DNA of 50,699 nt. Source: a phage. This document shows positions 5 to 17,916 of this stretch, one piece after another; position 1 is the stretch's first letter, and every line of letters starts with the position of its first letter. The stretch lies in the sequence record PZ150740.1; one strand, 5' to 3'. The notes under the pieces are model-generated. The model did not search any database. It worked only from the letters and a program-made list of their open reading frames with translations, and was not told where the DNA came from. The position numbers and the translations under genes were made by a program.

Positions 5-49
5 ACTTTATCAAATGCCCTTGCGGAAGTTTTAACAAAAAGTGCTATT
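5..49 (-). promoter_or_regulatory. box promoter unit (box 29-49, -10-like TAAAGT 5-10); leader continues at window end
   Basis: Perfect box; 18-bp spacer; stop of gene 48-338 in box. Confidence 0.5.
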
Positions 50-338
50 AGCTCAGATAGTAAAGCTCATCGCGCGCGAAGTCGTCAAAATCTCGCTGTG
101 TCAGCGGTCGATCCTCTCGCGCCGCTTCCTCTATCATGTTGATCAAGAAATCGTTCATCGCTCCTAGTCCACCATCCGGCATATAGCAAGCTGCGAAAGC
201 TCGCGCCCATGAACGAGCATTTTTGAATCCGGCGCGCTTCATTGTGACTGGCGAGTGTTTAGAGTCGTTCCACTTGTTAAACTGCGCGATGTTTTCAAAA
301 GCGTTAACCAGTAGTTTGCGGTAAGTTTTGTTTGCCAT
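48..338 (-). CDS. hypothetical early protein
   Basis: ORF track; stop codon embedded in box copy at 29-49. Confidence 0.5.
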   Translation of the reverse strand: MANKTYRKLLVNAFENIAQFNKWNDSKHSPVTMKRAGFKNARSWARAFAACYMPDGGLGAMNDFLINMIEEAAREDRPLTQRDFDDFARDELYYLS

Positions 339-349
339 TTTAGATCCCC

Positions 350-553
350 TTATTTTTGTTTAAGTCCCATCAGCATCTTGCGCACGCCATCCTTTTTCCC
401 GTCAGAGTAGCCAGCAATTGAACCAGCGGCAAACATCATCAAGTTGCCCCAAAAGGCCATAATGCCCTCATAGTTAATGGTTAAATGGCTGCCGAAAAGG
501 ATCAGAAAAAGAATAATAATACCAGTCTTCATTTTCACCTCAGTAACAATCAT
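350..553 (-). CDS. small hydrophobic (membrane) protein
   Basis: ORF track; hydrophobic stretch GIIILFLILFG; true start may be internal Met (MKTGII). Confidence 0.45.
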   Translation of the reverse strand: MIVTEVKMKTGIIILFLILFGSHLTINYEGIMAFWGNLMMFAAGSIAGYSDGKKDGVRKMLMGLKQK

Positions 554-788
554 TAACGTGAATCAGTACGAAAAAACGACACTTGCGTAAGCGGTGGCGC
601 TTCTTGACGTACATATAGGCATCACTGTAATACTTAAATTCAGTGGCAATGATGCCGAAAAAGTCATCTGTAACATAGTGCCAATTTCCGCCTAAGCTGC
701 GTCGCTGCACATGATAAGTAGAACAGTCGCGGCAAAATACGATCCGGTATTCCGGCTTAAACAGTCGTTTCAATGCGTTAAAAACCAT
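540..788 (-). CDS. hypothetical Cys-containing protein
   Basis: ORF track; several Cys pairs. Confidence 0.45.
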   Translation of the reverse strand: MVFNALKRLFKPEYRIVFCRDCSTYHVQRRSLGGNWHYVTDDFFGIIATEFKYYSDAYMYVKKRHRLRKCRFFVLIHVNDCY

Positions 789-887
789 AGTAGCGCCCTC
801 ATGCTATAAAGAAAAAGTAGCATTGATAATACCGCAATCATTGCGGAATGAAAATCAAAAGGTGGCTTAGGATTCGTTGCGTTATTG

Positions 888-1268
888 TTATTTTCCAGCA
901 TTGCGCGCGATCCTCTTGTAACCATAGTAGAAATCATCGCCTACGCCACGGAATTTTAACGCGTTACGCGCCAGGCGGCGGATTCGACGATTATCCAGTT
1001 TGCCGTAATTGGTTGGCGCTTTAATCGTCTTGATTGGACAACCTCTATGATTAGTGATTCGTTTAAGAGTGGCAACAATACCCTCAAGCGCACGGATAGC
1101 GAAGCCGTCGAAGCCAAGATCTTTATTGATTAGATAGCCATTGATACCAGGGATTCCGAACCTTTTGCTATCAACCTTAACAATCTGGCCCTTCTTCATT
1201 CCGCTATCTGGAATTGCGTAAGTAACTAAGAATTTAGTGCCGACGCGAATTTTTCTGATGTTAACCAT
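888..1268 (-). CDS. hypothetical protein
   Basis: ORF track. Confidence 0.5.
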   Translation of the reverse strand: MVNIRKIRVGTKFLVTYAIPDSGMKKGQIVKVDSKRFGIPGINGYLINKDLGFDGFAIRALEGIVATLKRITNHRGCPIKTIKAPTNYGKLDNRRIRRLARNALKFRGVGDDFYYGYKRIARNAGK

Positions 1269-1338
1269 TGTGATCTCCTCTTGATTGTTGATGTGCGCAT
1301 TATAGCGGGGCCGATAACCCCGCGTTTAGCAATTCGTG

Positions 1339-1929
1339 CTATTTAATCTGCGTGTGCTTCCATTTGACAGTATTGACGATCTCGTTTACAGCCAGTTCCG
1401 GCTTACCGTCCTGCAAGTGGAAATCATAGTGATGGATTCGATAGTGATAACCGCTCAGGTCAATGTAGTCTCTCGAATCGCCAGCAAACGTGAAGCCGTC
1501 GCGATGCAATCGGCAAATATGCACCTCATGCCCCGCCTTAACGAGCGGCTTGATTTCTTCGGGGAATCCGCCATCACTGATCACAACCGACAAATCTCGG
1601 TACATCTCGTGAATCTCTTCAACCATTCGACGCCCGAAATAGTGATCTCCAAAAACTGGCTTCATTACATCCTCGCTAATCCAGATCATGAATTGTCGAG
1701 GCGACTTGCCACCTAAGATAACTTGAGGCTTTTCTTTTTGCTCTCGGTCGTTGTATAGGCCCATAAATTCATCGTATCGAGTCGGGCCAAGCATAGAAAA
1801 AGCAATGTCGAACATAGGTTGCTTGAATGATGCCTTAACCGCTTGGTAACGATGGCCCGTTAGGTAAGCTGCAATAGTGTCCTTCCCGCAACCTGGCGGC
1901 CCATTAAGGATGATAATGTCTCGTTTCAT
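1339..1929 (-). CDS. P-loop nucleotide kinase (dNMP kinase-like)
   Basis: Walker A GPPGCGKDT at N-terminus, resembling the SGKDT P-loop of phage dNMP kinases as recalled. Confidence 0.6.
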   Translation of the reverse strand: MKRDIIILNGPPGCGKDTIAAYLTGHRYQAVKASFKQPMFDIAFSMLGPTRYDEFMGLYNDREQKEKPQVILGGKSPRQFMIWISEDVMKPVFGDHYFGRRMVEEIHEMYRDLSVVISDGGFPEEIKPLVKAGHEVHICRLHRDGFTFAGDSRDYIDLSGYHYRIHHYDFHLQDGKPELAVNEIVNTVKWKHTQIK

Positions 1930-2323
1930 GATTAATGATCTCCATAGCGAAAAATCGCATTAAATTTTTTCCCGCGCTTCTTGTCTTCGTTGCGCTTCTT
2001 GCGTTGCTTTTTCACAAGCTCCACATGCTCATCGTACCCGCGACGCTTCTTTTTGGTAATGATTTTTTCAAAGTTACGCATCATTTCCCCCTTTAGGTTT
2101 TCTCAAAATGGCGCACTTCATGAATGCGCCATAGCAAGAATCACCACTCAAATTTATGTTTGTCTCTGATGATCTCGTAAATTGCTAACCACACCCAAAC
2201 AAACCAGAAAGCGAGAACGATTTTATCGTCTTTGTCTGTCGCGTCAGAATATTTCACCAACGCGCGGAACGTGAATAAGCCTGAAATGTAAAGAAAAACA
2301 ACCAAAAAAAACAAGTAACCAAA

Positions 2324-2587
2324 TCATTTATTTTCTCCTTCAACTACCAGCGTGTAAAGCAGAACAGGCTCTACCATGTCGCGGCGGCGTGGCTCTCGTG
2401 GTGAATCGGGCCATGCGCATTTCCCGATTGACACAATATGGCCTACCAGGTCACTAAGTTTTGAGATTCCATCTCGACGGATAACGTTGTACCCAATATC
2501 CTTGCCGTTAATAGAATGGATAGCAAAAAAGCTAGGCGCGCCATCAACAACGTCTACCGCTTTAAAAAACTCGATCTTGTTAGTCAT
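2324..2587 (-). CDS. hypothetical protein
   Basis: ORF track; preceded by box promoter unit. Confidence 0.5.
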   Translation of the reverse strand: MTNKIEFFKAVDVVDGAPSFFAIHSINGKDIGYNVIRRDGISKLSDLVGHIVSIGKCAWPDSPREPRRRDMVEPVLLYTLVVEGENK

Positions 2588-2618
2588 GATTTAATCCTCG
2601 TTTGTTGTTGATGGGCTT

Positions 2619-2663
2619 ACTATACCGCAAGCCCGTTAAGATGTTTTAACAAAAAGTGCTATT
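2619..2663 (-). promoter_or_regulatory. box promoter unit (-10-like TATAGT)
   Basis: Perfect box 2643-2663; 18-bp spacer; hairpin GGGCTT/AAGCCC around -10. Confidence 0.55.
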
Positions 2664-3372
2664 ACGCATTAACAAAATCGCCGTCGTTGTGCTTGAACTC
2701 CCAGGCCGTTCCTGCTTCATCACACACGAGAAACGCCGTTTCGTTGTAGCTCCAAACATCATAAACCTTATCTTTTATAAAGTTGGCACTGACAAGGCTG
2801 TCTTTGCTGCCGATGAATCTTGCTCGCTCTGTGATCTTGATAGCATCAACGCCGTGAGATTGTATGTGAGCGTGTGGCTTGTCGTATTCCGTGACCTGAT
2901 AGGTTGTGATCCCCAAGCTGCGGAAGTGCTTAACCACGTTCGGCGAATCGTCAAAGGCGCAAACAATGTTGTCCAGGCCAATAGCGCGCAAGGCTTCTTC
3001 TTTAATAACCGTATCCTTTCGATTGTCCTCCTGGCGGCGCATGATGATTTCGTCAAACTTCACGCCGTTCTCATTCAACCATTTGCAGGTTTCATAGCGC
3101 ACCTCGTCGCTGCGTCCGGTCAGGATGACGATGGCAAATCCCGACACCCACAAACCGTTAATAACCGCGATCGTGCTTTTAATCGGTGAATCTCCGGCGG
3201 CGGCCCTGTTAAATTCGCTCCACGATTCCGTAAGGTGCAAGTTTTCAGTTGGCAGCAAGTGCAAGCGATGCGATCCGTCCGATAGTGTGCCATCCAGATC
3301 AACGATAACAATCGGCTTGCTGGTGATTAATTCGTACTTCTTGCCCCACAGTTCGAAAGTATACTTTTTCAT
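2662..3372 (-). CDS. HAD-superfamily phosphatase
   Basis: N-terminal DxDGT motif (IVIVDLDGT); stop codon in box copy 2643-2663. Confidence 0.6.
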   Translation of the reverse strand: MKKYTFELWGKKYELITSKPIVIVDLDGTLSDGSHRLHLLPTENLHLTESWSEFNRAAAGDSPIKSTIAVINGLWVSGFAIVILTGRSDEVRYETCKWLNENGVKFDEIIMRRQEDNRKDTVIKEEALRAIGLDNIVCAFDDSPNVVKHFRSLGITTYQVTEYDKPHAHIQSHGVDAIKITERARFIGSKDSLVSANFIKDKVYDVWSYNETAFLVCDEAGTAWEFKHNDGDFVNA

Positions 3373-4157: not shown

Positions 4158-4384
4158 TATTTGACTTCCTCAAAGGTTGCGATAAGGTCGGCGTAAGCGC
4201 AAATTGCGTTGCCGTTTTGACCGTTCAGGAACATACGGAATCCTTGATTGTTATTGACGTAAAACGATCCGGTTGATGTTCTCATTTTCTGCGCGGAGTA
4301 GATATGCCCCACTGTGAACATAAAGCCGCAACCTGGCGCTACACTGACACACTTCATTTTTTTCTGGATGATTAAACTTTCCAT
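4157..4384 (-). CDS. hypothetical protein (start adjusted to MESLIIQ)
   Basis: ORF track frame; ATG at 4384 downstream of box unit and RBS-like GAGAGGGGAAA. Confidence 0.45.
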   Translation of the reverse strand: MESLIIQKKMKCVSVAPGCGFMFTVGHIYSAQKMRTSTGSFYVNNNQGFRMFLNGQNGNAICAYADLIATFEEVK

Positions 4385-4414
4385 CGCGTTTCCCCTCTCG
4401 TTGAAAGTAGGGCC

Positions 4415-4458
4415 ATTATACCTGGCCCCACATTTGAGTTTTAACAAAAAGTGCTATT
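4415..4458 (-). promoter_or_regulatory. box promoter unit (-10 TATAAT, 17-bp spacer)
   Basis: Perfect box 4438-4458; hairpin GGGCC/GGCCC around -10. Confidence 0.55.
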
Positions 4459-5351
4459 TACACTTTGACCTTCCACTTAACCATCGTTCCGCGCTTGATG
4501 CTGATCTCACCCGCAACAGTCCGGTTTTTAGTGCCGCCATAGTGAAGCAGGAGAATAACAACATCATCATGAATTTCGATCGTCTTTGGTGTAGCCGTTA
4601 ATTCATACCAAGTGCCGTCATCAAGCCGGACTCCTTTTAGCGTGGCTGCAACTGGCATATCTTCAATCGCGCCCTGCGTTACGATTTCTTGATAGGCAAA
4701 GGCACTCTTATCAATACGCCAGCCTCCAGGCGCTTTCATTTCGGCGACCGCTTTGTGGATCTCCTCGCCAATGATTTTTTGAATTGAAGTCTTTCCGCCG
4801 CCGAATGGTGTTTCTCCAAACAAGTGTTTTGTAATGTCTTCCACGTAGTAAATCTTATCCTCTTCGTTGTGCGGATTGAATTTGTTGTGACCATTGACAA
4901 AGAAATCAACTTTCAACTCTGATTTCTGACCATCGCTATAAACGCCATTGTCGCGCGATGTGTAGCGAATCGTTGAATTACCAGCGGAGCGGAACGTGAT
5001 CGGATACTTGATATTGTCCACGCTTAAGCACCACAGCTTTTTGTAGTCGCATGTTTTCATATTTACCATCGGAATCTCTGCGCGTTCCGTTGAGCGCACT
5101 GGTAACACCTGGCCCTTATATGGCTTGTAGTGCAAGCATGTGTAGCCTGGCATTGCATAGCCATAGTCTTTAAGTGCGTTGTAGTGCTTGTTATGTGCAT
5201 CAATGAAGTGTTCAATCTCCATGCTTGATGGCGCACGCTTGTAGCTATGCAAATCAACCTTATGGCAGGTTTTTTCATCGGTAAAAATGTAATGACCAAT
5301 ACCGCGAGATTCGAAGGTGATCGGGAATTTAATGTCAGCAAGTTTTAACAT
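4458..5351 (-). CDS. hypothetical protein with internal duplication
   Basis: ORF track; repeated segments ADIKFPITFESRG / VDNIKYPITFRSAG. Confidence 0.5.
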   Translation of the reverse strand: MLKLADIKFPITFESRGIGHYIFTDEKTCHKVDLHSYKRAPSSMEIEHFIDAHNKHYNALKDYGYAMPGYTCLHYKPYKGQVLPVRSTERAEIPMVNMKTCDYKKLWCLSVDNIKYPITFRSAGNSTIRYTSRDNGVYSDGQKSELKVDFFVNGHNKFNPHNEEDKIYYVEDITKHLFGETPFGGGKTSIQKIIGEEIHKAVAEMKAPGGWRIDKSAFAYQEIVTQGAIEDMPVAATLKGVRLDDGTWYELTATPKTIEIHDDVVILLLHYGGTKNRTVAGEISIKRGTMVKWKVKV

Positions 5352-5405
5352 GGTGCTTTCTCCTGATTGGTTTTGTGGGCGACGCCGTGCCGCCCTATGT
5401 GATTT

Positions 5406-5450
5406 ATTATGCCTGGTTATCGTTTTCGAGTTTTAACAAAAAGTGCTATT
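5406..5450 (-). promoter_or_regulatory. box promoter unit (-10-like CATAAT)
   Basis: Perfect box 5430-5450; 18-bp spacer. Confidence 0.55.
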
Positions 5451-5635
5451 TAGAATTTTACCTCTTCCACAAGCTCAACCATTTTATAACCAAGACGATA
5501 AGAGTCACCGAACAACAAGATCCCCATAAATTCATCATAGCTTATTGACTCTTTGCCAACCGTTCTAAGCTCTCCGTTGTGAATCACAGTATCGCCGATC
5601 TTGATTTCTGATTTATGGACTAATTTCGTTTTCAT
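5450..5635 (-). CDS. hypothetical protein
   Basis: ORF track; stop in box copy. Confidence 0.5.
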   Translation of the reverse strand: MKTKLVHKSEIKIGDTVIHNGELRTVGKESISYDEFMGILLFGDSYRLGYKMVELVEEVKF

Positions 5636-5650: not shown

Positions 5651-5836
5651 TTAAAAGAAAGCTACATAGTTTGCAATGCCTTTGGCGTCGTCGTTTGGCA
5701 TTGCTTTTACAGCCAGGTCATAACCTGCCTCTACCTTCTGCTTTGCTGTTTCTTCGTTGTAGCCCCAGATAACCAGGATTTTAACTACGTTTTCTTTGTT
5801 CAGGACTTTAAGGTCTTTGGTGATGCGACGTGCCAT
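5651..5836 (-). CDS. hypothetical protein
   Basis: ORF track; box unit upstream. Confidence 0.5.
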   Translation of the reverse strand: MARRITKDLKVLNKENVVKILVIWGYNEETAKQKVEAGYDLAVKAMPNDDAKGIANYVAFF

Positions 5837-5868
5837 TTTTGTTTCCTCAATCTCGTTTCGATGAGGCT

Positions 5869-5913
5869 ATTATGCCAGGCTTTGCGCCTGGCGTTTTAAC
5901 AAAAAGTGCTATT
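5869..5913 (-). promoter_or_regulatory. box promoter unit (-10-like CATAAT)
   Basis: Perfect box 5893-5913; spacer is palindrome GCCAGGCgcaaaGCCTGGC. Confidence 0.55.
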
Positions 5914-6169
5914 TAATATCTGTTGTGACTTGCTGGTGCATTACGTTCTTTCCGCTGTTGTACGTGCTATCCGTTGCGCCTTTGCAATTGGTGTAATAGA
6001 TGGCGCGACCGTTATCATAGAATCTGTATGCTGTGCATCCGTCAACAGTGAACAGGCGACCGACCTTGAAATCTGACTCCGCGCCTACGACAACCGTTGA
6101 TTCTGATGCCTTTTCGCATCCGGTCAGGAGTGTCATTGCCGCCAAAACGCCGATTAATGCCTTTTTCAT
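5909..6169 (-). CDS. lipoprotein (possible Cor-like superinfection exclusion protein)
   Basis: Signal peptide with lipobox LLTGC; small Cys/Tyr-rich mature part; Cor assignment is inference. Confidence 0.5.
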   Translation of the reverse strand: MKKALIGVLAAMTLLTGCEKASESTVVVGAESDFKVGRLFTVDGCTAYRFYDNGRAIYYTNCKGATDSTYNSGKNVMHQQVTTDIK

Positions 6170-6633
6170 TATTGCTCCTCCTCTTTGATGATTTCGCGGA
6201 TCATATCCTGGTAGCGGCTTACGCCCTCACAAGCTCCAGCCAGTTTATCCCCTTCCAGGTCCACGATGTTCGGAATTGCTGCCAGTAAGCGATCGGCAAA
6301 CTTTTTGATCGCCCTTGCCTTGATAGCTGGCAATTCTTCGGGTGTGATGATTTTCCTTTTCGATTCTCGGACCATGCGGAAAACGTAAAATTTATCATCT
6401 TCCGTTTCCTCAACCTTGATGCTTACCCGACCTGCGGCCCTTACTTCTGGAACGCGGTTGATAATGGTCCGGCTGTAGGATGAACTGCGCGTGATCTTGT
6501 AGCAGTCATCGCCGCTTAACATTCCGGCCAGGTCAATTAGTGACATTTTATACTCTTCAATATCGCCACTAGCCAGGCGGCGACCAAGCTCGCGAAGCCA
6601 ATCGCAATAGTCCTTAGTGGTCTTCTGTTCCAT
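6169..6633 (-). CDS. hypothetical early protein (start adjusted to MEQKTTK)
   Basis: ORF track frame; strong RBS GGAGGAAAGGAA before ATG at 6633; first gene after leftward consensus promoter. Confidence 0.5.
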   Translation of the reverse strand: MEQKTTKDYCDWLRELGRRLASGDIEEYKMSLIDLAGMLSGDDCYKITRSSSYSRTIINRVPEVRAAGRVSIKVEETEDDKFYVFRMVRESKRKIITPEELPAIKARAIKKFADRLLAAIPNIVDLEGDKLAGACEGVSRYQDMIREIIKEEEQ

Positions 6634-7246: not shown

Positions 7247-7291
7247 AATAGCACTTTTTGTTAAAACTCAGACCACCTGATCGGGTACATT
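7247..7291 (+). promoter_or_regulatory. box promoter unit (-10-like TACATT)
   Basis: Perfect box 7247-7267; leader ACACACATCGAAACGAA. Confidence 0.55.
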
Positions 7292-7325
7292 ACACACATC
7301 GAAACGAACCGCTCAGGAGATAGCA

Positions 7326-7598
7326 ATGAACATCAGCAAAACCACTTTCAACTTCGCTAAGCGTCACGGTCTGGATCTGACTGTTGAAGACTTCGGCGAT
7401 GTTCTGCAACTCTGCATATGGGAAGCAGATAACGATTGCGAGTGGCTTTGCTCTTACCGTATCAACTACGATTGCTTGACCTGGCACGGCAATATCTATC
7501 TGCCGCAAGAAGTGAAGGAAGAATTGCCAGCGACTATCAACAACGAAGTTTTCTTGCGTCAGGTGCTGAAATTTATCAGTGAGGAGATCAAGAAGTGA
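7326..7598 (+). CDS. hypothetical early protein
   Basis: ORF track; box unit 7247-7291 upstream. Confidence 0.55.
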   Translation: MNISKTTFNFAKRHGLDLTVEDFGDVLQLCIWEADNDCEWLCSYRINYDCLTWHGNIYLPQEVKEELPATINNEVFLRQVLKFISEEIKK

Positions 7599-7864: not shown

Positions 7865-8064
7865 TCAAGAAAGCACATGAGATGGGTATGGATGTTTCAA
7901 TCTGCGACGCTTCCTCGCGTCACCCGTCAGCACCTGAAAATATGGTTGTTGTCATCGTACATAATCACCGCTATGAGTGCCGTGCGATGTTTGAGAAGCA
8001 GGATAAAGAGTCTCAACGCTGTTTTATCAACGAAGTTTGCGATCTGTATGGGAGAATCAACTGA
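7852..8064 (+). CDS. hypothetical protein
   Basis: ORF track frame; ATG after GGAGAAG RBS. Confidence 0.5.
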   Translation: MLNVIKKAHEMGMDVSICDASSRHPSAPENMVVVIVHNHRYECRAMFEKQDKESQRCFINEVCDLYGRIN

Positions 8065-8330
8065 TGGCACGTATCAATGCACCTATTCCAGTTAAGCGCA
8101 AAGCGCGTTTGCTCAATAACGGATGTTACGCCCTGCGGCCAGCATTTAAGGATCGCACATTTCCGGTTATCGTTAACGTGTCTCACGTAAGCCGTAGCGG
8201 AAACCTGGTATTCGTTAAAGGTGAAGATCTGGCGGCGCTTGGATTCTACGGCGGTGTTTATAGCGAACCGCTCGGATTCTGGCTTGTAGATCCGTTAACT
8301 GGCGAGCGTGAAATCGAATTTCTGGACTAA
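8064..8330 (+). CDS. hypothetical protein
   Basis: ORF track frame; TGATG overlap; stop TAA embedded in box 8330-8350. Confidence 0.5.
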   Translation: MARINAPIPVKRKARLLNNGCYALRPAFKDRTFPVIVNVSHVSRSGNLVFVKGEDLAALGFYGGVYSEPLGFWLVDPLTGEREIEFLD

Positions 8331-8374
8331 ATAGCACTTTTTGTTAAAACTCAATCCTCTCATTCCTGTACATT
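8330..8374 (+). promoter_or_regulatory. box promoter unit (-10-like TACATT)
   Basis: Perfect box; leader ACACGCATCGACAACGAA. Confidence 0.55.
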
Positions 8375-8407
8375 ACACGCATCGACAACGAATGTGAGGA
8401 TTTGAAA

Positions 8408-8560
8408 ATGGTTACTCTGATTACCTGGGAACACGAAAACAGCCAGCCGGAAGCGCGCGAATTTGAAACCGTAGCCGCTTGTTACAACCTGGCGAAAAAT
8501 GGCGGATTCTACAAGGCGCAAATCGTTAACGAGTTTGGAGTTGTTGACTATGAGTTCTAA
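8408..8560 (+). CDS. small protein (50 aa, below ORF-track cutoff)
   Basis: Hand-translated MVTLITWEHENSQPEAREF...; preceded by box unit and RBS TGAGGA. Confidence 0.4.
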   Translation: MVTLITWEHENSQPEAREFETVAACYNLAKNGGFYKAQIVNEFGVVDYEF

Positions 8561-8837
8561 GTTTTACAGCTACACCGACACAGTGGATTTTGAGGGGATA
8601 CAATTGCCCCTCCCGAATATATACCGCTATATCACTCGTGACGAACGCGGATTTATTGAAGCCTGGCGCGCGAAGCCAGTGCGGGATCTTGAATTTGGTG
8701 GCTTCCGATCCCTTGAAGGTGAATTGCCGATCTGCTTTGGTCATCAAAGCGGTAAAAACCTTCCTGTTGTTGAGCGTCAGTATCGCCGCCACAAGATTAC
8801 AAGGCAACTTATCTCTTTAACTGGAAAAGTTGTTTAA
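8550..8837 (+). CDS. hypothetical protein (start adjusted to MSSKFYS)
   Basis: ORF track frame; stop TAA inside box 8836-8856. Confidence 0.5.
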   Translation: MSSKFYSYTDTVDFEGIQLPLPNIYRYITRDERGFIEAWRAKPVRDLEFGGFRSLEGELPICFGHQSGKNLPVVERQYRRHKITRQLISLTGKVV

Positions 8838-8880: not shown

Positions 8881-8911
8881 ACATCCATCGACAACAAACG
8901 AGGATTTAAAG

Positions 8912-9109
8912 ATGGAAAATCAAGTTGATGTTAAAGTAATTATTCGCGACAAGTCTCACGAAAAAGGCTTATTCAAGAAAGGCACTGAAATTACCATCGA
9001 TCTTGATGATATGGTTGCTTACCATTCAGGCTTGGAATGGAAGGTTGTTAAGGTTAACGAATATCATTTCAAGTTGGCTGGCTTTGAAACCGTAATGGAG
9101 ATCATTTAA
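8912..9109 (+). CDS. hypothetical protein (start adjusted to MENQVDV)
   Basis: ORF track frame; RBS GAGGA before ATG. Confidence 0.5.
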   Translation: MENQVDVKVIIRDKSHEKGLFKKGTEITIDLDDMVAYHSGLEWKVVKVNEYHFKLAGFETVMEII

Positions 9110-10171: not shown

Positions 10172-10756
10172 GTGCGCATACAGCATGAGAATATCGAATA
10201 CGTTAACGTCTGGATTGATGAAAGATTTTACCACCGCGCGCGCTGGGAGGAATGGGGCATTCCTGACTTTATTATGGCATTTCCACCATGCACCGACCTT
10301 GCAAATAGCGGATCTCGCCATTGGGCCAAAAAACGCCTTGAGAATCCATCGTTCCAGGATGAGGCCGCCGACACTTGCAGGATCGCGGCTGATATAGCTG
10401 ATTATTTCGGTGTTCCTTACATGATCGAAAATCCGGTTGGCAAGTTGTCAACGTTATGGCGAAAGCCTGATTATACGTTCCATCCGTGCGATTACGCTGG
10501 CTATCTGCCGGAAGATGATAAACATCCCGACTTCCCTGATATTATTCCGGCGCGGGATCGCTACTTTAAGAAAACGTGCCTCTGGACTGGCAACGGCTTT
10601 GTTATTCCTCCACGCGCTTTAATCCTGCCGAAAGAGGAAGACAAAGATAATCCAGGCTGGGCCAAAACTGGCGGCAAGTCATCGCGCACAAAGATGATCC
10701 GCTCCCTCACTCCGCGCGGATTTGCTCGCGCCGTCTTTGAGTCAAACTCAAAATAG
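10172..10756 (+). CDS. cytosine-C5 methyltransferase-like protein (catalytic core; N-terminus uncertain, frame open from 10055)
   Basis: FPPC (PC-motif-like), ENP(V)G (ENV-like), PARDRYF and GNGFV motifs in C5-MTase order; no ATG for motif-I region. Confidence 0.4.
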   Translation: MRIQHENIEYVNVWIDERFYHRARWEEWGIPDFIMAFPPCTDLANSGSRHWAKKRLENPSFQDEAADTCRIAADIADYFGVPYMIENPVGKLSTLWRKPDYTFHPCDYAGYLPEDDKHPDFPDIIPARDRYFKKTCLWTGNGFVIPPRALILPKEEDKDNPGWAKTGGKSSRTKMIRSLTPRGFARAVFESNSK

Positions 10757-10796
10757 CACTTTTTGTTAAAAGCCAGGTGTAAAAACCTGGCATAAT
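10752..10796 (+). promoter_or_regulatory. box promoter unit (-10-like CATAAT)
   Basis: Box with 1 mismatch; spacer palindrome GCCAGG-tgtaaaaa-CCTGGC. Confidence 0.55.
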
Positions 10797-10825
10797 CACA
10801 TCGAACAAACAAAGGAGATCTGATC

Positions 10826-11026
10826 ATGAATGTTATCTGTAATGAAACCAACGTATTGATGAAAGGCCGTTTTAAAACGGTTTATCAGAAGATTGCAGGA
10901 AGTAATGATGTGATCGAGGTGGAAGAATTCAGGTTAAGACGCTTGTTAAGGGTAGCCGCTGGCTTCCAGCAAACCGAGATGATTACCGCGCCATTAACAC
11001 AAAAACCGTTCTTTGCACGTTTGTAG
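10826..11026 (+). CDS. hypothetical protein
   Basis: ORF track; box unit 10752-10796 upstream. Confidence 0.5.
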   Translation: MNVICNETNVLMKGRFKTVYQKIAGSNDVIEVEEFRLRRLLRVAAGFQQTEMITAPLTQKPFFARL

Positions 11027-11034: not shown

Positions 11035-11211
11035 ATGCCGTGCAAAAAGCACTTTAAGCAGGGCAAGCGATACCGAATCGAGAAAGGGCGACCGCTTGGA
11101 AGCGTTGCGGGTTATGTTTTTGATGAGTGCGGCGACCGCTGGAACCTGTACCGTGAAGAGGTCGGATTCTCTGCTGGCGGCTGTTATCTGTTTGAGGGTA
11201 AATATCTGTGA
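11035..11211 (+). CDS. small Cys-containing protein (58 aa, not in ORF track)
   Basis: Hand-translated MPCKKHFKQGKRYRIEKGRPLG... Confidence 0.35.
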   Translation: MPCKKHFKQGKRYRIEKGRPLGSVAGYVFDECGDRWNLYREEVGFSAGGCYLFEGKYL

Positions 11212-11429
11212 TAAACAGTGAAAACCGTTACAAAGTAACGCATTCTACCACAAAGACTTTCAAGCCTGGCGATATAGTCAGGCCCATCAAAAAAACGGCG
11301 GTAGGTTGGCTGATTGGTTTTTCATATCATAAGGCGCTTTACTTTACGTTTAAGGATGGGATTACAGGAGAATGCTACAGCGACCGCCAGCCTGATCGAC
11401 TTCTGGTTGCAATAGAGCGGATCAAATAG
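11208..11429 (+). CDS. hypothetical protein
   Basis: ORF track; stop TAG inside box 11425-11445. Confidence 0.45.
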   Translation: MINSENRYKVTHSTTKTFKPGDIVRPIKKTAVGWLIGFSYHKALYFTFKDGITGECYSDRQPDRLLVAIERIK

Positions 11430-11469
11430 CACTTTTTGACAAAACGGGGTAGTATTGGGCCGTTAAAAT
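11425..11469 (+). promoter_or_regulatory. box promoter unit variant (TTGACA inside box; -10-like TAAAAT)
   Basis: AATAGCACTTTTTGACAAAAC; hairpin GGGCCG/CGGCCC overlaps -10. Confidence 0.5.
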
Positions 11470-11497
11470 TTACGGCCCACAAAGGAGAAGCTAACGA

Positions 11498-13078
11498 ATG
11501 TTTTCATTAGAAACGAACAAATTAACTCCACAGCAAATAATCGCTATGGCTGAAAGCCAGAACCTTTCACCAGTTCGCGTATCAATTCAGGCTAACGGCT
11601 ATCGCCAGTCGTCCAGCTTTTGGGGCGACGTGAAGGATGTAAATAGCGGTCATGATCGCTACCCCGTTATTTCTCTTGGTAATGATATTGATGTTGTAGG
11701 CAAGTTATCACGCAGTATTGCGCGATCCGTTCAATTTCCTGAATCATCGGCTTACATGCACTTTATCGGCTGCATTTCCGCCGCTATGCTTGGACGCTTT
11801 ACGGTTGACTATCACGGAACCGATCAGCCGACTGCGCTTTACGTGGTTACAAGCCAGCCGCCGTCAACTGGTAAATCTGCGATCAACAGTATGGCTATTG
11901 CTCCGATGATTGCGGAAGTTGAGAAGATCAACGAGCAACGCCGCAAGGAAAGAAAGAAAATACAGGCAAAGTTGGCAGGTCTTGCAAAGGAGATGAAAAG
12001 CGAAAGATCCGGCGCTGATATGGAATCTCTATACCAGGAAAAAGAGGATCTGGAGGAGAAGCTGGAAAAGATGTGTGATATAACTTTCCCTGTTTCAGAT
12101 ACAACTCCAGAAGGCTTGGCGAAAATCAACAACAAGCAAGGTAACTTTGCCGTAATATCTGACGAAGCAACAAGTATTAATAGCCTGTTAGGCTTGACCT
12201 ATGCAAATAGCGAAAGGAAGACTAACAGTGAGCTAGTGCTTAAGGCGTGGGATAATGGTCACGTATCAATTGCCCGTGCTAATGCTGACAATAATATGAG
12301 TTTTCGCGCGCTTGGATGCATGAGCGTTATAGCACAGGATGAAACGATAAGCGGTATCATGGACGCTGGATCGCGCGGTATCGGTGTGAGTGAGCGCTTT
12401 TTGTTGGTCCGCGAAGAATCATTCTTAGGCCGTCGCTCATTCATTGATGAAAATGGTGATTCTACCTATGAGGCGGTGGATTCTGAATTGAAAGCCCAAT
12501 ATTATCAATTGGTGCATAACATCATGAGCGAATCAAATATATCGCTGAAAATAAGCCGCTCAGCTATGCGAGTGCTCAACATTGCTCGTCAGGATATGGA
12601 ACCGCATCTTGCAGACGGCGGAAAGTATTCTCATACAATGTTACGCGGTGCGCTGGGTAAAATGGATAAACAGGTGATCAGGCTTGCTTCCGTCCTGCAT
12701 GTTATCCGTAACTGGTTTAATCCTGCCGGATACCCGCAGAAGTCGAAAGAGATCGACGTGGAAACAATGCAAGAGGCGTTGATCATGTTTCAGGAATTGA
12801 GCAAAACATACATTAGCGCCGCCAATGCTTCTGGTTATGCTGGTGATGATGCTGAAATGGGTAAATTGATTGAATTGATCACGAGGCACGGCAAGGCTAA
12901 CAAAGGGATTCTGAATATTCGCGCCCTGTACGAATCAGCGAGAAAGGTAAAACCTTTCGTTGGTCAGGCTGGCGTAATGAAGAGGATAGAGGGGCACTTG
13001 CTGCCAATGCTGGAAGAAAGAAATTATGTTTGTGTGATTAATGGTGTTATTTTTGTCAATCCAATACTGCTGGGATGA
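11498..13078 (+). CDS. large early protein, possible replication-associated ATPase
   Basis: 526 aa; deviant P-loop-like PPSTGKS; placement in early right block; family assignment uncertain. Confidence 0.35.
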   Translation: MFSLETNKLTPQQIIAMAESQNLSPVRVSIQANGYRQSSSFWGDVKDVNSGHDRYPVISLGNDIDVVGKLSRSIARSVQFPESSAYMHFIGCISAAMLGRFTVDYHGTDQPTALYVVTSQPPSTGKSAINSMAIAPMIAEVEKINEQRRKERKKIQAKLAGLAKEMKSERSGADMESLYQEKEDLEEKLEKMCDITFPVSDTTPEGLAKINNKQGNFAVISDEATSINSLLGLTYANSERKTNSELVLKAWDNGHVSIARANADNNMSFRALGCMSVIAQDETISGIMDAGSRGIGVSERFLLVREESFLGRRSFIDENGDSTYEAVDSELKAQYYQLVHNIMSESNISLKISRSAMRVLNIARQDMEPHLADGGKYSHTMLRGALGKMDKQVIRLASVLHVIRNWFNPAGYPQKSKEIDVETMQEALIMFQELSKTYISAANASGYAGDDAEMGKLIELITRHGKANKGILNIRALYESARKVKPFVGQAGVMKRIEGHLLPMLEERNYVCVINGVIFVNPILLG

Positions 13079-13470
13079 TTATGTTTTTGCTTGATCTGTA
13101 TAAATGGTGTGAGTCATACGACTGGTTTAACAGGCAGCACATAGCCAAATTTATCTATCAGCATAGAGAATGTGAGCGGCTCGCACGGGCCGCCGGACTT
13201 ACGCCGCGAATGTTCGCCAGCCTTGCATCTAAGGAATTTTGCGCAAGAATGATGACGGCTGGTTATATAGATGGGGTCTGCGGAAAATACTGGTCCAAAG
13301 GATCGTCAAAGCGGCCTTTCGGATTCGAATTGTATAGCCTGGATGGTATGCGCAACGACTGGATCAGGGATATGGCGAGAATAGGGGAGATGGGCGATGA
13401 TGAATTGTTCCAGGCAAAAGCTGATAGACAAGATCTTGAAGCACTGCGCCGTAAATTCAATATCACATGA
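13075..13470 (+). CDS. hypothetical protein
   Basis: ORF track; ATGA overlap with upstream gene. Confidence 0.5.
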   Translation: MIMFLLDLYKWCESYDWFNRQHIAKFIYQHRECERLARAAGLTPRMFASLASKEFCARMMTAGYIDGVCGKYWSKGSSKRPFGFELYSLDGMRNDWIRDMARIGEMGDDELFQAKADRQDLEALRRKFNIT

Positions 13471-13586
13471 GGATTTTATTCATGCTTTACTTACGCTACT
13501 TTATTCAGATATGCGCGCTTTTAGCACCACTGAACATGTTTTATGCAATGATGATGGTGTATTACTGGTTACGGTAAAGCGTATGG

Positions 13587-13631
13587 AATAGCATTTTTTG
13601 TTAAAACGCCCGGCCTAGTGTCGGGTATATT
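13587..13631 (+). promoter_or_regulatory. box promoter unit (-10-like TATATT)
   Basis: Box with 1 mismatch; 40-bp near-identity to unit at 16802-16846 on the opposite strand. Confidence 0.55.
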
Positions 13632-13667
13632 TGTTTCATCGAAACGAAACAACCAAAAGGTAAAATT

Positions 13668-13892
13668 ATGTCCAGCAAGTTTTTAGTAGTTCGCGTATAT
13701 AATCATGACAACGGATCTTCTGCTGAAATCCCAACAATTTACGACAGGGATTTTGGATGGAGTGAGCAATCGGCGGTTGAAAATGAGCGCAAGATTGCAG
13801 AACTGTACGGCGACACTTGCAGCATTGAAGTAAGGCAGTACGACGAATCGAACAAGCCAACAAACGAAACTCATATGTGGCCCGACGCATAA
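13668..13892 (+). CDS. hypothetical protein
   Basis: ORF track; box unit 13587-13631 upstream; terminator downstream. Confidence 0.5.
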   Translation: MSSKFLVVRVYNHDNGSSAEIPTIYDRDFGWSEQSAVENERKIAELYGDTCSIEVRQYDESNKPTNETHMWPDA

Positions 13893-13898
13893 AAATAA

Positions 13899-13926
13899 AG
13901 GAGGCATTAAGCCTCCTTTTTCTTTT
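13899..13926. terminator. rho-independent terminator (plus strand), overlapping 3' end of spanin gene
   Basis: AGGAGGC-attaa-GCCTCCT followed by TTTTTCTTTT. Confidence 0.5.
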
Positions 13927-14302
13927 CTCTCCAGTAAAGACAAATCAGCACAATTAACACAACCACGCATATGATTACTGGATCGTACCATCTGCCGTTA
14001 TTACCCTGCACGACCTGAATTTTGTCTGCCTTGATGGTATTGGCCTGAATGGTTGATGTTGTGAAATCCTTCTTGCTGGACGTGTCCACCTTGTCAACCG
14101 CAGATTCCTTTATTGTGGTTTCCTGTTTTGTGCTGGCGTCCTGCTTTGCTGTAATGCCAACTGTCTGCTTCACGTTCTCCGCGCCAGCCTGTGCTGTGAT
14201 TTCCGGCTTACTGCCGATTAATCCGGTCAGTGGCGTAACGCTTGAACATCCAGACAAGATCACCGCCATTGCGATTGGTGTAAGTAAAAATTTCTTCATC
14301 AT
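13907..14302 (-). CDS. unimolecular spanin (u-spanin)
   Basis: N-terminal lipoprotein signal (ILSGCSS) plus C-terminal TMD (VIICVVVLIVLICLYW); immediately downstream of endolysin. Confidence 0.6.
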   Translation of the reverse strand: MMKKFLLTPIAMAVILSGCSSVTPLTGLIGSKPEITAQAGAENVKQTVGITAKQDASTKQETTIKESAVDKVDTSSKKDFTTSTIQANTIKADKIQVVQGNNGRWYDPVIICVVVLIVLICLYWREKKKEA

Positions 14303-14303
14303 T

Positions 14304-14788
14304 TCAATCCATTGTGCAATATTTGTATTCGACCTTGCGCCTGTTAAGTAAGCCTTTAGACTTCTCGCGCTTTCCTGTTTTGGGGTTATGGTAATACGTC
14401 CAACGATAAAGCTGATCGCAAGCCTCGTTTAATTTCCCCTGGTTGATGAGTTTCAGCATTGTTGAATTTCTGAAAGCTCCAACTCCTGCATTATAAGTGA
14501 ATGAGTACATTGCTGCACGCATACTATCAGGAATGTCAACCTTAACTTGCTTGTCAACTTCTTTTTTAGCAACCTGGATATGTTTAGCCAACAAAGCATC
14601 ACACTCTTTTTAGTGTACGTTTTCCCCAGGATAACATCTGGTCCGGTTATTCCTGCGCAAACAGTCCATACTCCCGCAATATCTTTGTATGGCTTGTATC
14701 TTACCCCTTCGATCTCTTCAAGAAGTGGAGAAGTCAAGGCAACCGCAACGCCAAAGGCCGCAGCCGCTACCTTGTTCTTTATGCTCAT
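14304..14788 (-). CDS. SAR endolysin (lysozyme), reading frame interrupted by 1-nt frameshift near 14600-14612
   Basis: Two track ORFs in different frames; N-part has SAR-like TMD and [19 protein letters not shown]-part [17 protein letters not shown]; resembles P21-type lysozyme as recalled. Confidence 0.6.
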
Positions 14789-15003
14789 TACTTGCCCCTG
14801 ATTTCAATAGCTTTTTGAATATCACCTTTTTCGATCGCCTCGTGGAATTTTTTACTATCACGCCAGCGAAGGTAAGCGCCCCATGCACCGAATGCAGCCA
14901 TTAAAACAAAGCTGGCAATAGCAATGGTTAACTGCCCTGTAGCTGCGCTTGCGATAGATGAACCGCCAGATCCGGCGGTAGCTGCGTTAATAAAATCTTT
15001 CAT
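14788..15003 (-). CDS. holin (pinholin-like)
   Basis: 71 aa, two hydrophobic segments, Gly/Ala/Ser-rich first TMD; directly upstream of endolysin. Confidence 0.55.
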
Positions 15004-15147
15004 TTTTATTCTCCATATTAATTAAAGTCAATATATTGACCGAATGATAAACTTACATGGTAAAAAATTAAACAAAAAAAGAGGCGACAAACGCCGCCCC
15101 TTTGCAAGTTTTTGATTTAATTTGTCATTGATTTAAATAAAAATTCA

Positions 15148-16265: not shown

Positions 16266-16357
16266 TGCTACCTATCTCATTACTATATGGTACATAACTG
16301 TAACAGCGATGATAACGGGTAACGGTAGAACAAACAAGCGCCACATGATAACTATCC

Positions 16358-16600
16358 TCATTTATAATATTTGCGAGGCTCTCGGATTTTAGCCATTGCC
16401 TCTTTGAAATCAATTTTTGTTGGAACTGCTGGAACTCTCACCATTTTTCGCGGCCTTTCCTTGAGGAAAGTCATCTTATCGCCGCTAATTATGCTCACAT
16501 CTGCAATATCAAAGTATTGCGCGATCTTCTTTATATCGTCGGCTATTCCGCATTCTTTAGCGTGATTCCATACCGCATCTCTACCTTGCTCAACCTTCAT
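16358..16600 (-). CDS. hypothetical protein (start adjusted to MKVEQGR)
   Basis: ORF track frame. Confidence 0.45.
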   Translation of the reverse strand: MKVEQGRDAVWNHAKECGIADDIKKIAQYFDIADVSIISGDKMTFLKERPRKMVRVPAVPTKIDFKEAMAKIREPRKYYK

Positions 16601-16769
16601 GCTTATAATATGCCTCCGCTTGTTCAATTGGCGCGTGACCGTATGCAACTTTCAGTAAAAACATTGCGATGTCCCAATCAAACTGGAACCCTTCCTTTGA
16701 ACCGCCCTCTACTGAACCTTTTGCTACTTCTTGAGCAAGATTAAAAGCGCGTTTATCGAATACCACCAT
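16590..16769 (-). CDS. small protein (59 aa, not in ORF track)
   Basis: Hand-translated MVVFDKRAFNLAQEVAKGS...; RBS GAGGAAATAAAA; downstream of box unit. Confidence 0.4.
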   Translation of the reverse strand: MVVFDKRAFNLAQEVAKGSVEGGSKEGFQFDWDIAMFLLKVAYGHAPIEQAEAYYKHEG

Positions 16770-16801
16770 TTTTATTTCCTCATGTTTGCTTCGTTGAAAT
16801 A

Positions 16802-16846
16802 ATTATGCCCGACACTAGGCCGGGCGTTTTAACAAAAAATGCTATT
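16802..16846 (-). promoter_or_regulatory. box promoter unit (-10-like CATAAT)
   Basis: Box with 1 mismatch; near-identical to unit at 13587-13631. Confidence 0.55.
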
Positions 16847-17102
16847 AGTGGATCATTCCGTGCTGAAAATTCCACGAATCGACAAACTCTTGCATGTCAT
16901 TTCTTATTTGTTCGTGCCATTTTTCAAGCGGTAGTTTTCTTGTCTCCTCAAAGCTCATATCTAATGCGCTTGAAAATTCCCACGGATCGCAATCAATCAT
17001 CTTTTTCACGTTATGGTTTTTATCAAGTGCATCGCACACCATAGCGCGAAATAACAACCATTCGCCAGTTTCATTTAAATAAACGCTTCTCTCTTTTTTC
17101 AT
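16845..17102 (-). CDS. hypothetical protein
   Basis: ORF track; stop in box 16826-16846. Confidence 0.5.
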   Translation of the reverse strand: MKKERSVYLNETGEWLLFRAMVCDALDKNHNVKKMIDCDPWEFSSALDMSFEETRKLPLEKWHEQIRNDMQEFVDSWNFQHGMIH

Positions 17103-17106
17103 CGTG

Positions 17107-17832
17107 TTAGCTCCGTTTGCGTGCGCGACGTTCGGTTACAGAAGGGCAAATATCGCTGATCTTAACGTATCGCGTTTTCTGCTCCTCGCCTTCTTTAAGT
17201 TTGCGCATGACAAAAATCACGCTTCCCTTGTTGTTGCCCTGCACAGGCTCACCAGTCAATCCAGACACAAAGGCGATTCTTCCGGTGCGGGAGTATTCTA
17301 CTCCACCCTCTTCGTAAACCTCGCCAGTGATCCAGATGATTTCAGCCGCGTTTTTCTGCGCTTCATAAAACCATGCTGTAGAGTTGTCGGCTGGCAACAA
17401 AACATCAATTTGGTTGTTGTGCTCCATTTGCTCAATTGCTTTCTTGATAAATGGAGTTGGGTTGCTGTACGGTGGGTTAAGCCATACGTGCTTGTTGCTA
17501 CCCCACCAACGCTTTAAGCAGTTTGTTTCCTTGCTATAGAACTTCTCGCAAACTGCGTTTTCCTGGCTTGCTGCTGCGTCGAGATCGTATTCACCAAATT
17601 CTGATTCCATCCACTCCACGATCTCTTGAGGAGTGCTCCACATATCGCGCACAACGTCCGGCGTGGTGCTTCCAGCGTATCGGTTGCCGCTTACCTTATA
17701 ATATTGATTTGGCTTTACTGCCTGGTAATGGCCTCCAGTTGCAAGGGCATTCCCTATAAACGTTTCTCTCTCCAACTGCTCAAAGCTAACGAATGCGTCA
17801 TGAGTGTCTTTATCTAAAATATCTTTAGCCAT
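17107..17832 (-). CDS. dam: DNA N6-adenine methyltransferase (Dam-like)
   Basis: NPPY motif (WLNPPYSNP); box unit upstream. Confidence 0.75.
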   Translation of the reverse strand: MAKDILDKDTHDAFVSFEQLERETFIGNALATGGHYQAVKPNQYYKVSGNRYAGSTTPDVVRDMWSTPQEIVEWMESEFGEYDLDAAASQENAVCEKFYSKETNCLKRWWGSNKHVWLNPPYSNPTPFIKKAIEQMEHNNQIDVLLPADNSTAWFYEAQKNAAEIIWITGEVYEEGGVEYSRTGRIAFVSGLTGEPVQGNNKGSVIFVMRKLKEGEEQKTRYVKISDICPSVTERRARKRS

Positions 17833-17871
17833 TTCATTTCTCCGCTATTAAAAGCAATCTCGTGTTATTGA

Positions 17872-17916
17872 ATTATGGCGCAATCCATCGCGCCAGTTTT
17901 AACAAAAAGTGCTATT
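17872..17916 (-). promoter_or_regulatory. box promoter unit upstream of Dam gene (-10-like CATAAT)
   Basis: Perfect box 17896-17916; spacer hairpin GGCGC/GCGCC. Confidence 0.55.

Follow-up and report, generated by a model that had tools for sequence, protein, structure and literature searches.

A repeated box at gene ends of a T1-like phage as the probable upstream element of a composite gene-boundary cassette

In the early and middle region of the phage sequence PZ150740.1, the stop codons of successive genes coincide with a short, conserved repeat, which raises the question of why gene ends and repeat are joined in this way. The whole stretch of 50,699 nucleotides (nt) is referred to here as the window, and the 19-nt repeat, ATAGCACTTTTTGTTAAAA, as the box. 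An earlier reading of the letters alone (the sequence-only reading) had proposed that the box provides one promoter unit per gene, and that the fixed junction implies cassette-like modularity of the early genes, possibly arising from repeated recombination at the box. It appears that the box is probably the upstream element of a composite gene-boundary cassette of 75-100 bp, of which the early and middle region contains at least 15 copies. Each cassette consists, in order, of the upstream stop codon, the box (aa)ATAGCACnnnTTGnTAAAA, a GC-rich stem-loop, a -10 hexamer, a CA-rich leader, a Shine-Dalgarno (SD) sequence, and the ATG of the next gene.

With up to three mismatches allowed, 19 copies of the box are present in the window, compared with 0.03 expected from shuffled sequences; TAAATAGCAC occurs eight times (0.08 expected) and TAATAGCAC three times (0.45 expected). 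Every early-region copy points in the local direction of transcription, and all 15 cassettes are co-oriented with their downstream gene. In 13 of the 14 copies in the flagged region, the stop of the upstream open reading frame (ORF) abuts the box, overlaps it by one base, or sits inside it. In type 1 junctions (gene ends 4458, 5450, and 8330), TAA immediately precedes the box (TAA followed by ATAG). In type 2 (48, 2662, 8837, and 16845), the last A of TAA is a box base and an in-frame box TAG follows (TA[A]TAG), while in type 3 (5909, 10756, 11429, 13591, and 17912) the stop is the TAG at box positions 2-4 (A[TAG]). All twelve gene ends listed in the sequence-only reading are ORF ends that coincide with a box copy, and its count of 12 in 14 becomes 13 in 14 with the addition of a variant copy, ATAGCACGAATTGCTAAAC, at 1342..1324, whose in-box TAG also terminates the upstream gene 1339..1929. 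At the five type 3 ends, the stop lies within the box and is not made by a leading TAA. The exception, the copy at 7248, is located in a divergent region and has no co-directional upstream gene. All early cassettes having a co-directional upstream ORF (13 of 13) begin with the upstream stop in an A/T-rich stretch and end with an SD and a start codon.

The same arrangement is found in annotated relatives. In the RefSeq record of vB_EcoS-95, the coding sequences (CDS) 13567..14340 and 14793..15014 end inside the boxes at 14337 and 15011, respectively. At the counterpart of the 8837 junction, where the window has GTT TAA TAG, vB_EcoS-95 has TTG AAT AG, read as GAA TAG; the in-box TAG is the back-up stop here, where TAA is GAA. 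One of the window ORFs concerned, 13397..13591 (+, 64 aa), overlaps the end of 13075..13470 and has the in-box TAG as its stop. The annotations of JLBYU01 and ExeQuayColi include it, those of RefSeq vB_EcoS-95 and tonijn do not, and its status as a real gene is doubtful. A universal three-frame stop (TAAATAG...TAA) was also considered as a selected feature and was rejected, as it holds in eight window copies and position -3 is unconserved family-wide.

In relatives, positions 47705-50699 adjoin position 1 on its upstream side, so the window is a complete, circularly permuted T1-like genome (Warwickvirus, Tempevirinae, Drexlerviridae). By megablast, its first 20 kb match Escherichia phages vB_EcoS-95, tonijn, tunus, swan01, and others with about 96% identity and 86-95% query coverage. 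Genes lie on the minus strand in 1-7128 and 13907-20325 and on the plus strand in 7326-13892. Natural variants were compared using the early regions of ten Warwickvirus relatives. A family-wide set was obtained by a degenerate-motif scan of IMG/VR, which yielded many Drexlerviridae fragments, TLS, T1, and Rtp included, and comprised 244 unique junctions, 275 unique cassettes aligned on the box, and 271 cassettes that were folded. Grouping by upstream flank, with the relatives included, gave 157 junction families, which are phylogenetically not fully independent.

Among the 275 aligned cassettes, the best -10-like hexamer lies exactly 19 nt past the box in 219 (80%), with CATAAT, TATAGT, TATTAT, and TATAAT as examples, and a G at -14 is conserved at about 1 bit. 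The hexamer is followed by a conserved CA-rich leader, CATCGAAACGA or ATCAACAACAAACGAGG. The distance from the box start to the ATG is 72-83 nt in 13 of the 15 early window cassettes (98 nt at 5449). Orientation with transcription, the 19-nt spacing, and the distance to the start codon are consistent with the earlier suggestion that the box belongs to a promoter unit. No -35 element is found at 16-18 nt from the -10 of the box cassettes, TTGnTA lying 22 nt and TTAAAA 19 nt away. TTGnTA was rejected as an ordinary -35, since the 22-nt distance holds for all copies, even for the TTGACA variant at 11426. In a generic scan, canonical -35/-10 promoters were not enriched (27 vs 36 expected from shuffles); the scan missed nearly all cassettes and caught only one, at 4444. 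Since no -35 is present at a usable spacing, the box would probably recruit or activate host RNA polymerase.

If transcription starts about 7 nt past the hexamer, as we infer, the box occupies about -51 to -32, with its centre near -42. It has a T5/A4 core, and its best-conserved part is ATAGCAC. For comparison, an UP element is an A/T-rich alpha-CTD site, at about -40 to -60, without required G/C positions. The box is also a weak palindrome, TAGCA-N5-TGyTA (4-5 of 5 positions), which is perfect in the GAA variant. In class II activator promoters, CRP or FNR is centred at -41.5, and extended -10 promoters carry TGnTATAAT. The box cassettes resemble these in having a good -10, a G at -14, no usable -35, and a quasi-palindrome near -42; they differ in that the palindrome is weak, the start site is deduced, and the binding protein is only a candidate. 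The MotA box of T4 middle promoters, a phage precedent, is centred at -30, not -42. A sigma54 promoter was rejected: the box resembles TGGCAC-N5-TTGC, but with a GG-to-GC spacing of 10 nt instead of 12, and a -10 of the sigma70 type stands at a fixed distance from it. The box has no known convincing match to the consensus sites of CRP, FNR, Fis, IHF, LexA, or DnaA.

A stem-loop is a further feature of most early cassettes. In the window, a GC hairpin of -12 to -18 kcal/mol is predicted in 11 of the 15 early cassettes, where it either separates the box from the -10 or has the -10 within it; both cassettes heading divergent units have none. Family-wide, a hairpin with a free energy (dG) of at most -8 kcal/mol is predicted in 71% of the 271 folded cassettes vs 2.6% of shuffles. 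Its frequency is 83-90% where a stop abuts the box vs 35-48% where there is no co-directional upstream ORF (Mann-Whitney p=6e-4). The median stem extends from +19 to +49, counted from the box start, and ends at the predicted start site; the stem would thus be part of read-through RNA from the upstream unit and absent from RNA initiated at the cassette. At the same place, paralogous or allelic cassettes carry differing stems (GGGCTT/AAGCCC vs GGCCT/AGGCC; GATGCGCT/AGCGCATC vs GATGT/ACATC; TGCGGTAA/TTACCGCA; GGGATAAC/GTTATCCC), which points to selection on the structure of the hairpin rather than on its sequence. No known RNA families or tRNAs were detected in or near the cassettes.

The repeat itself has been described before. 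In the re-annotation of phage TLS, German, Kropinski, Misra et al. (2024, PMC11447400) reported 18 intergenic 21-nt direct repeats, aaATAGCACnnnTTGnTAAAA, about 76 nt upstream of start codons, found also in T1, Rtp, and Rogue1, and left their function open between a stoperator, an enhancer site, and an UP element; only three sigma70-like promoters were found, in agreement with the generic scan of the window. The window boxes share the motif, the orientation, and the distance to the start codon (about 76 nt there, 72-83 here) and are members of this TLS/T1 21-nt repeat family, the variant copy at 1342 belonging with its GAA subgroup. The TLS paper makes no mention of embedded stops, a 19-nt spacing to the -10, a hairpin, recombination, or a role in gene content (PMC11447400). 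The box is known, while the anatomy of the cassette and, for a T1-like phage, a behaviour recalling that of the promoter-early stem-loops (PeSLs) of other phages appear to be undescribed.

PeSLs occur in T4-like myoviruses, where they mediate modular shuffling (Arbiol et al. 2010, PMC2839356; Comeau et al. 2014, PMC4122927). They comprise a stop codon, an AT-rich region, -35 and -10 elements with a stem-loop between them or over the -10, an SD, and a start codon (PMC2839356). The window cassettes likewise have the upstream stop in an A/T-rich stretch, a stem-loop that either follows the upstream element and precedes the -10 or covers the -10, and an SD and ATG; they also cluster among small genes of unknown function and lie at indel and replacement junctions of close relatives. 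On the other hand, they belong to Drexlerviridae siphoviruses rather than T4-like myoviruses, have no usable -35 where PeSLs have a sigma70-type -35 and -10, and carry a much more strongly conserved box of 19-21 nt, which suggests a site for a specific binding factor. Demonstrated promoter and terminator activity and mini-circle formation are part of what defines PeSLs; the promoter and terminator roles of the cassettes are predicted. In the literature searched, PeSLs are described only in T4-like and a few other large phages, never in T1-like ones. The window cassettes are an analogue of PeSLs, not a member by descent.

With regard to the position of gene ends, about 77% of the 244 Drexlerviridae junctions have the stop between -3 and +16 of the box. 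The stop is TAG at +1 in 113, TAA at +14 in 24, TAA at -3 in 22, TAA at -2 in 14, and at +7 in 8; about 36 junctions have it further upstream, and 21 have none. By junction family (157), the TAG frame is used in 84, TAA at +14 in 17, and TAA at -3 in 15. ATAG is 90% conserved where no ORF precedes the box, as much as elsewhere, so the triplet belongs to the DNA motif and is exploited by ORFs. The box offers stops in two of three frames, TAG at positions 2-4 and TAA at 15-17, and its conserved 5′ end, aAATAG, contains TAG and is one mutation from TAA thanks to the flanking A's. Since, in addition, the cassette takes up the whole intergenic space, upstream ORFs run as far as the box or enter it, and an ORF deprived of its own stop ends there. 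Genome compaction together with the built-in stops TAG and TAA gives the best account of the junction, and recombination, invoked earlier as its possible origin, is not needed as a cause. The overlap with stop codons is in itself a modest finding, mostly a matter of compaction and stop triplets within the motif.

Compaction alone leaves one feature unexplained: the earliest stop frame is preferred 5:1, with TAG at +1 or TAA at -2 in 84 of 116 box-abutting families (72%), vs 15% for TAA at +14. A plausible contributing cause is selection that keeps terminating ribosomes away from the hairpin. With the stop at +1, the ribosome would leave the hairpin free, as this begins at +19, while with the stop at +14 it would cover the 5′ arm. 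A stronger form of this idea, compatible with the explanation by compaction and built-in stops, is that selection at the RNA level holds the stop at least about 18 nt upstream of the hairpin, letting a terminator or a 3′-protective stem-loop fold, and would by itself, without recombination, tie the end of the gene to the 5′ box edge. The frame preference agrees with it, as does the link between hairpins and the presence of an upstream ORF; hairpins are also commonest (90%) and start at +19 in the earliest-stop class, vs 65%, starting about 5 nt later, in the +14 class. Yet the classes do not differ significantly in hairpin energy (p=0.11), the frame bias could be a legacy of shared ancestry, and termination or RNA stabilisation by the hairpin is itself a prediction. 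We regard this stronger form as unlikely.

Counting the ORFs between successive cassettes, with a check against annotated relatives, gives units of about 2, 1, 5, 4, 5, 4, 2, 6, 2, 2-3, 1, 2, 2, and 6 genes. Units thus hold 1-6 genes, with a mean of about 3, and only 2 of about 15 contain a single gene, which contradicts the notion of one promoter unit per gene.

Whole units have been gained and lost among the relatives. The unit between the boxes at 8331 and 8837 is missing from five relatives, in which the one cassette left matches both window cassettes, the two alignments overlapping by 80 nt, and the junction lies at the box. The two-gene unit between the boxes at 5912 and 5449 is precisely missing in L004, L128, and L129; L004 equals L003 minus 463 nt between two boxes with 22 identical bases, the flanks being identical on both sides. 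Extra one- or two-gene units with duplicated or hybrid cassettes on their flanks are present in L003, L127, and L130, including an additional box-plus-gene unit at 7248 in L003. At 2663 and 4465, breakpoints coincide precisely with the 5′ box edge. When flanks were clustered as upstream gene end (U), spacer/-10/leader (P), and downstream gene (D), they were found to be re-assorted across cassettes: U8 occurs with D8, D19, or D25, U22 with D6, D5, or D22, and D3 with six different U flanks. At distant loci compared by tblastn, the downstream gene usually retains its box and the upstream partner varies, a trend drawn from short fragments with thin coverage.

Base-by-base reading places the junctions of the L003, L127, and L130 units and of the D4/D18 and D5/D22 alternatives in a shared -10/leader block, in sequences such as catcgaaacgaaccgc, CATCGA, gtatagtaRgcccatc, ctttcaacga, and cacatag. 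Two crossover events lie in the 22-nt box repeat vs at least five in the -10/leader block. Contrary to the suggestion of repeated recombination at the box, exchange is not specific to it; judged from these alignments, the exchange zone is the whole cassette, not the box alone. All-against-all comparison gave about 30 breakpoint sites per genome, and the predicted correlation between gene-content breakpoints and box positions was found: cassettes hold 35-48% of the sites and account for about 10% of the sequence (an enrichment of about 4-fold by length) and about 25-30% of gene junctions. A hand tally in vB_EcoS-95 assigned 11 sites to its 13 cassettes, about 10 to the 31 ordinary junctions, and about 9 to gene interiors. 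Likewise, about 10 distinct events at non-box gene boundaries (1934, 3372/3584, 3800/4156, 8058/8073, 9091/9114, 13431/13891, and others) compare with about 9 involving cassettes, and some non-box junctions have overlaps of 4-24 nt, e.g., 3372/3584, 3800/4156, and 9091/9114. Cassettes are not put forward as recombination hot spots, as their excess is clear by length but not per boundary edge. The modularity proposed earlier is supported by precise unit gains and losses and by hybrid cassettes, without a clear excess over ordinary gene boundaries; it appears from the alignments that cassettes are used as joints, whereas a preference for them over other boundaries is not demonstrable.

A working scheme for the cassette can be proposed, in which we infer promoter, terminator, and activator roles from its sequence. 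Briefly, the hairpin would end or attenuate the transcripts of the upstream unit, or stabilise their 3′ ends. The box would recruit or activate host RNA polymerase via a phage-encoded factor, or as an UP element or -35 surrogate, and transcription would restart at the cassette for the next 1-6 genes. The two conserved blocks, about 22 nt of box and about 8-20 nt of -10/leader, would serve as short homologies at which units of one or two genes are gained, lost, or swapped, as one route to mosaicism among several. In its fullest form, the T1-family 21-nt repeat would be the site of a phage-encoded class-II-type activator, e.g., the helix-turn-helix (HTH) protein encoded at 20413..20889, within a portable cassette. 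Such a cassette would stop translation in two or three frames, terminate the transcript of the upstream unit, start transcription anew, and provide homology for the exchange of small units, as an independently evolved siphovirus counterpart of PeSLs. We offer this full form tentatively, as more likely to fail in some part than to hold.

Several points weigh against the composite cassette and its proposed working. The full TGn motif is present in only 4 of the 15 window cassettes, and the conserved G at -14 could come partly from hairpin composition. Most hairpins have no U-tract and are not canonical intrinsic terminators. The hairpin difference between TAG-frame and +14-frame junctions, while in the expected direction, falls short of significance, and the families counted share part of their ancestry. 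In vB_EcoS-95 the breakpoint rate per edge, with two edges per cassette, is about 0.4 vs about 0.3 for ordinary junctions, and cassettes may only mark gene ends without promoting exchange. In addition, no transcript ends, reporter, or binding data for T1-like phages, and nothing useful under the exact motif, were found in the literature searched, with queries that were partly off-target.

These points lead to the simplest alternative, pure compaction, in which the cassette is a promoter between genes with no part in recombination, ORFs end at the box through its stop codons, spare DNA has been deleted, and breakpoints coincide with cassettes via gene boundaries, the location of all mosaic junctions in phages. 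The near-equal numbers of events at non-box boundaries and at cassettes, the similar rates per edge, and the microhomology at non-box junctions all accord with it. It does not account for two unit indels that are exact between two identical 22-nt box repeats, nor for three inserted units with duplicated or hybrid cassettes whose crossover can be placed in the shared -10/leader, and the enrichment by sequence length also speaks against it. We consider pure compaction a possible but minority explanation. The stoperator or repressor site suggested for TLS, at which a phage protein on oriented repeats blocks transcription, finds a parallel in the stoperators of mycobacteriophage L5, which are also numerous, short, asymmetric, intergenic, and oriented to transcription (PMC11447400). 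A Cro/YdaS-like HTH gene adjoins one box, and the boxes at 20401, 21964, and 38137 are reverse-oriented and immediately precede the SD of a divergent or late gene. L5 is temperate, however, with a prophage repressor and no fixed spacing of stoperators to promoters, whereas the relatives of the window are annotated as virulent, in a family without a known repressor. The 19-nt spacing to the -10 and the fixed distance to the start codon would be unexpected for roadblocks, and the boxes at 7248 and 20401 head divergent units with no upstream transcription to stop. A stoperator role is, in our judgement, highly improbable.

The composite cassette, if correct, makes several predictions: start sites at the CATCGA leaders, about 7 nt past the -10; promoter activity that depends on the box in spite of the missing -35; and hairpins that act on the upstream transcript. 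The analysis bears on the function of the repeats, which the TLS authors named as an open question (PMC11447400), and an activator-binding cassette, if true, would answer what TLS-type repeats do. The principle of PeSLs, a compact terminator-promoter cassette that doubles as a recombination joint, may also reach beyond T4-like phages. Drexlerviridae are common therapy and model phages. For their annotation and engineering, cassettes would be natural insertion points, and the deletion of units would mimic existing variation. The coordinates of the window cassettes are given in Table 1.

Table 1. Gene-boundary cassettes of the window and the candidate regulator gene; roles are predicted from sequence features.
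Feature	Position (strand)	Upstream gene end	Box	Hairpin	-10 hexamer	Start codon	Remarks
Cassette 1	1..50 (-)	TAA 50..48, gene 48..338	48..30	around -10	TAAAGT 10..5	ATG 50671, across circular junction	
Cassette 2	1266..1345 (-)	in-box TAG 1341..1339, dNMP-kinase-like gene 1339..1929	1342..1324, variant ATAGCACGAATTGCTAAAC	GC hairpin	TATAAT 1304..1299	ATG 1268	
Cassette 3	2585..2664 (-)	TAA 2664..2662, polynucleotide kinase gene 2662..3372	2662..2644	-10 in loop	TATAGT 2624..2619	ATG 2587	box edge is a breakpoint in 5 relatives
Cassette 4	4382..4460 (-)	TAA 4460..4458, gene 4458..5351	4457..4439	around -10	TATAAT 4420..4415	ATG 4384	relatives: extra 230-nt gene exactly at stop/box edge; other gene after leader
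Cassette 5	5349..5452 (-)	TAA 5452..5450, gene 5450..5635	5449..5431		CATAAT 5411..5406	ATG 5351, long leader	one end of box-to-box 2-gene indel; 360-nt leader insertion in 3 relatives, at 5368/5385
Cassette 6	5834..5912 (-)	in-box TAG 5911..5909, gene 5909..6169	5912..5894	CCAGGC/GCCTGG	CATAAT 5874..5869	ATG 5836	
Cassette 7	7248..7328 (+)	no co-directional upstream gene	7248..7266	none	TACATT 7286..7291	ATG 7326, leader CATCGAAACGAACCGC	divergent region; L003 has extra gene and second cassette at leader
Cassette 8	8328..8410 (+)	TAA 8328..8330, gene 8037..8330 (start probably ~8067 by homology)	8331..8349		TACATT 8369..8374	ATG 8408	left end of unit missing in 5 relatives
Cassette 9	8835..8914 (+)	TAA 8835..8837, then in-frame box TAG	8837..8855		TATATT 8875..8880	ATG 8912	
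Cassette 10	10753..10828 (+)	in-box TAG 10754..10756, Dcm methylase ORF	10753..10771	CCAGGT/ACCTGG	CATAAT 10791..10796	ATG 10826	
Cassette 11	11426..11500 (+)	in-box TAG 11427..11429, gene 11208..11429	11426..11444, TTGACA variant	-10 in loop	TAAAAT 11464..11469	ATG 11498, helicase	
Cassette 12	13588..13670 (+)	in-box TAG 13589..13591, doubtful ORF 13397..13591	13588..13606	present	TATATT 13626..13631	ATG 13668	
Cassette 13	16767..16847 (-)	TAA 16847..16845, gene 16845..17102	16845..16827	GCCCGGC/GTCGGGC	CATAAT 16807..16802	ATG 16769	
Cassette 14	17830..17918 (-)	in-box TAG 17914..17912, VRR-NUC gene	17915..17897	GGCGC/GCGCC	CATAAT 17877..17872	ATG 17832, Dam	
Cassette 15	20323..20401 (-)	no upstream gene	20401..20383	no strong hairpin	TATTAT 20363..20358	ATG 20325, helicase	outside flagged region; box 5′ edge 12 nt from ATG of divergent HTH gene
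Cro/YdaS-like HTH 'transcriptional regulator' gene	20413..20889 (+)						candidate box-binding protein

Some other features of the window were recorded beside the cassettes. Relative to tonijn, eleven single-base deletions occur within 12 kb, mostly in short homopolymer runs (9943, 10075, 10930, 14306, 14606, 15073, 16768, 17831, 18281, 18920, and 18968). They split the Dcm methylase, a 387-nt gene, the endolysin, the VRR-NUC gene, and the ATP-dependent helicase into two ORFs each, and look like sequencing or assembly errors rather than real pseudogenes. The sole perfect sigma70 consensus promoter in the first 20 kb, TTGACA-16-TATAAT at 6665-6692 (-), lies upstream of the gene 6169..6633; its spacer holds AAATAGC and a CAACAAC-type leader follows. 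Judged by this layout, it may be a box-independent immediate-early promoter.

At three places (20383-20412, 21946-21990, and 38120-38155), the SD of a divergently transcribed gene directly adjoins the 5′ box edge, GTGCTAT being followed by GAGGTG, TTAGGAGG, or AAGGAG and then by ATG. At the HTH regulator gene, such a junction puts the box in the 5′ untranslated region (UTR) or promoter of the gene and would allow autoregulation. The box at 48 is closely followed by a gene for a small AbrB-like protein. Two good box copies on the plus strand, at 38137-38155 and 41891-41909, are antisense to structural genes of the minus-strand late region. The former directly adjoins the SD of a late gene on the minus strand (ATG at 38122) and has, on its own strand, a terminator about 35 nt past the predicted -10; the latter is 47 nt upstream of the ATG of ORF 40873..41844. 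Both could be antisense promoters, sources of short RNAs, or sites of bidirectional regulation.

Also in the late region, a box variant, ATAGCACTAATTGCTAAAA, is found at 46466-46534 (-) between the ORFs 46531..48099 (522 aa) and 45168..46466 (432 aa). Its in-box TAG ends the upstream ORF, and a canonical intrinsic terminator, GGCTGGA...TCCAGCC with a T-run, replaces the -10 at 19 nt. Finally, a symmetric hairpin at 13897-13919, AAAGGAGGC...GCCTCCTTT, has T-runs on both strands and separates the convergent blocks ending with 13668..13892 on the plus strand and 13907..14302 on the minus strand; it is probably a bidirectional terminator.

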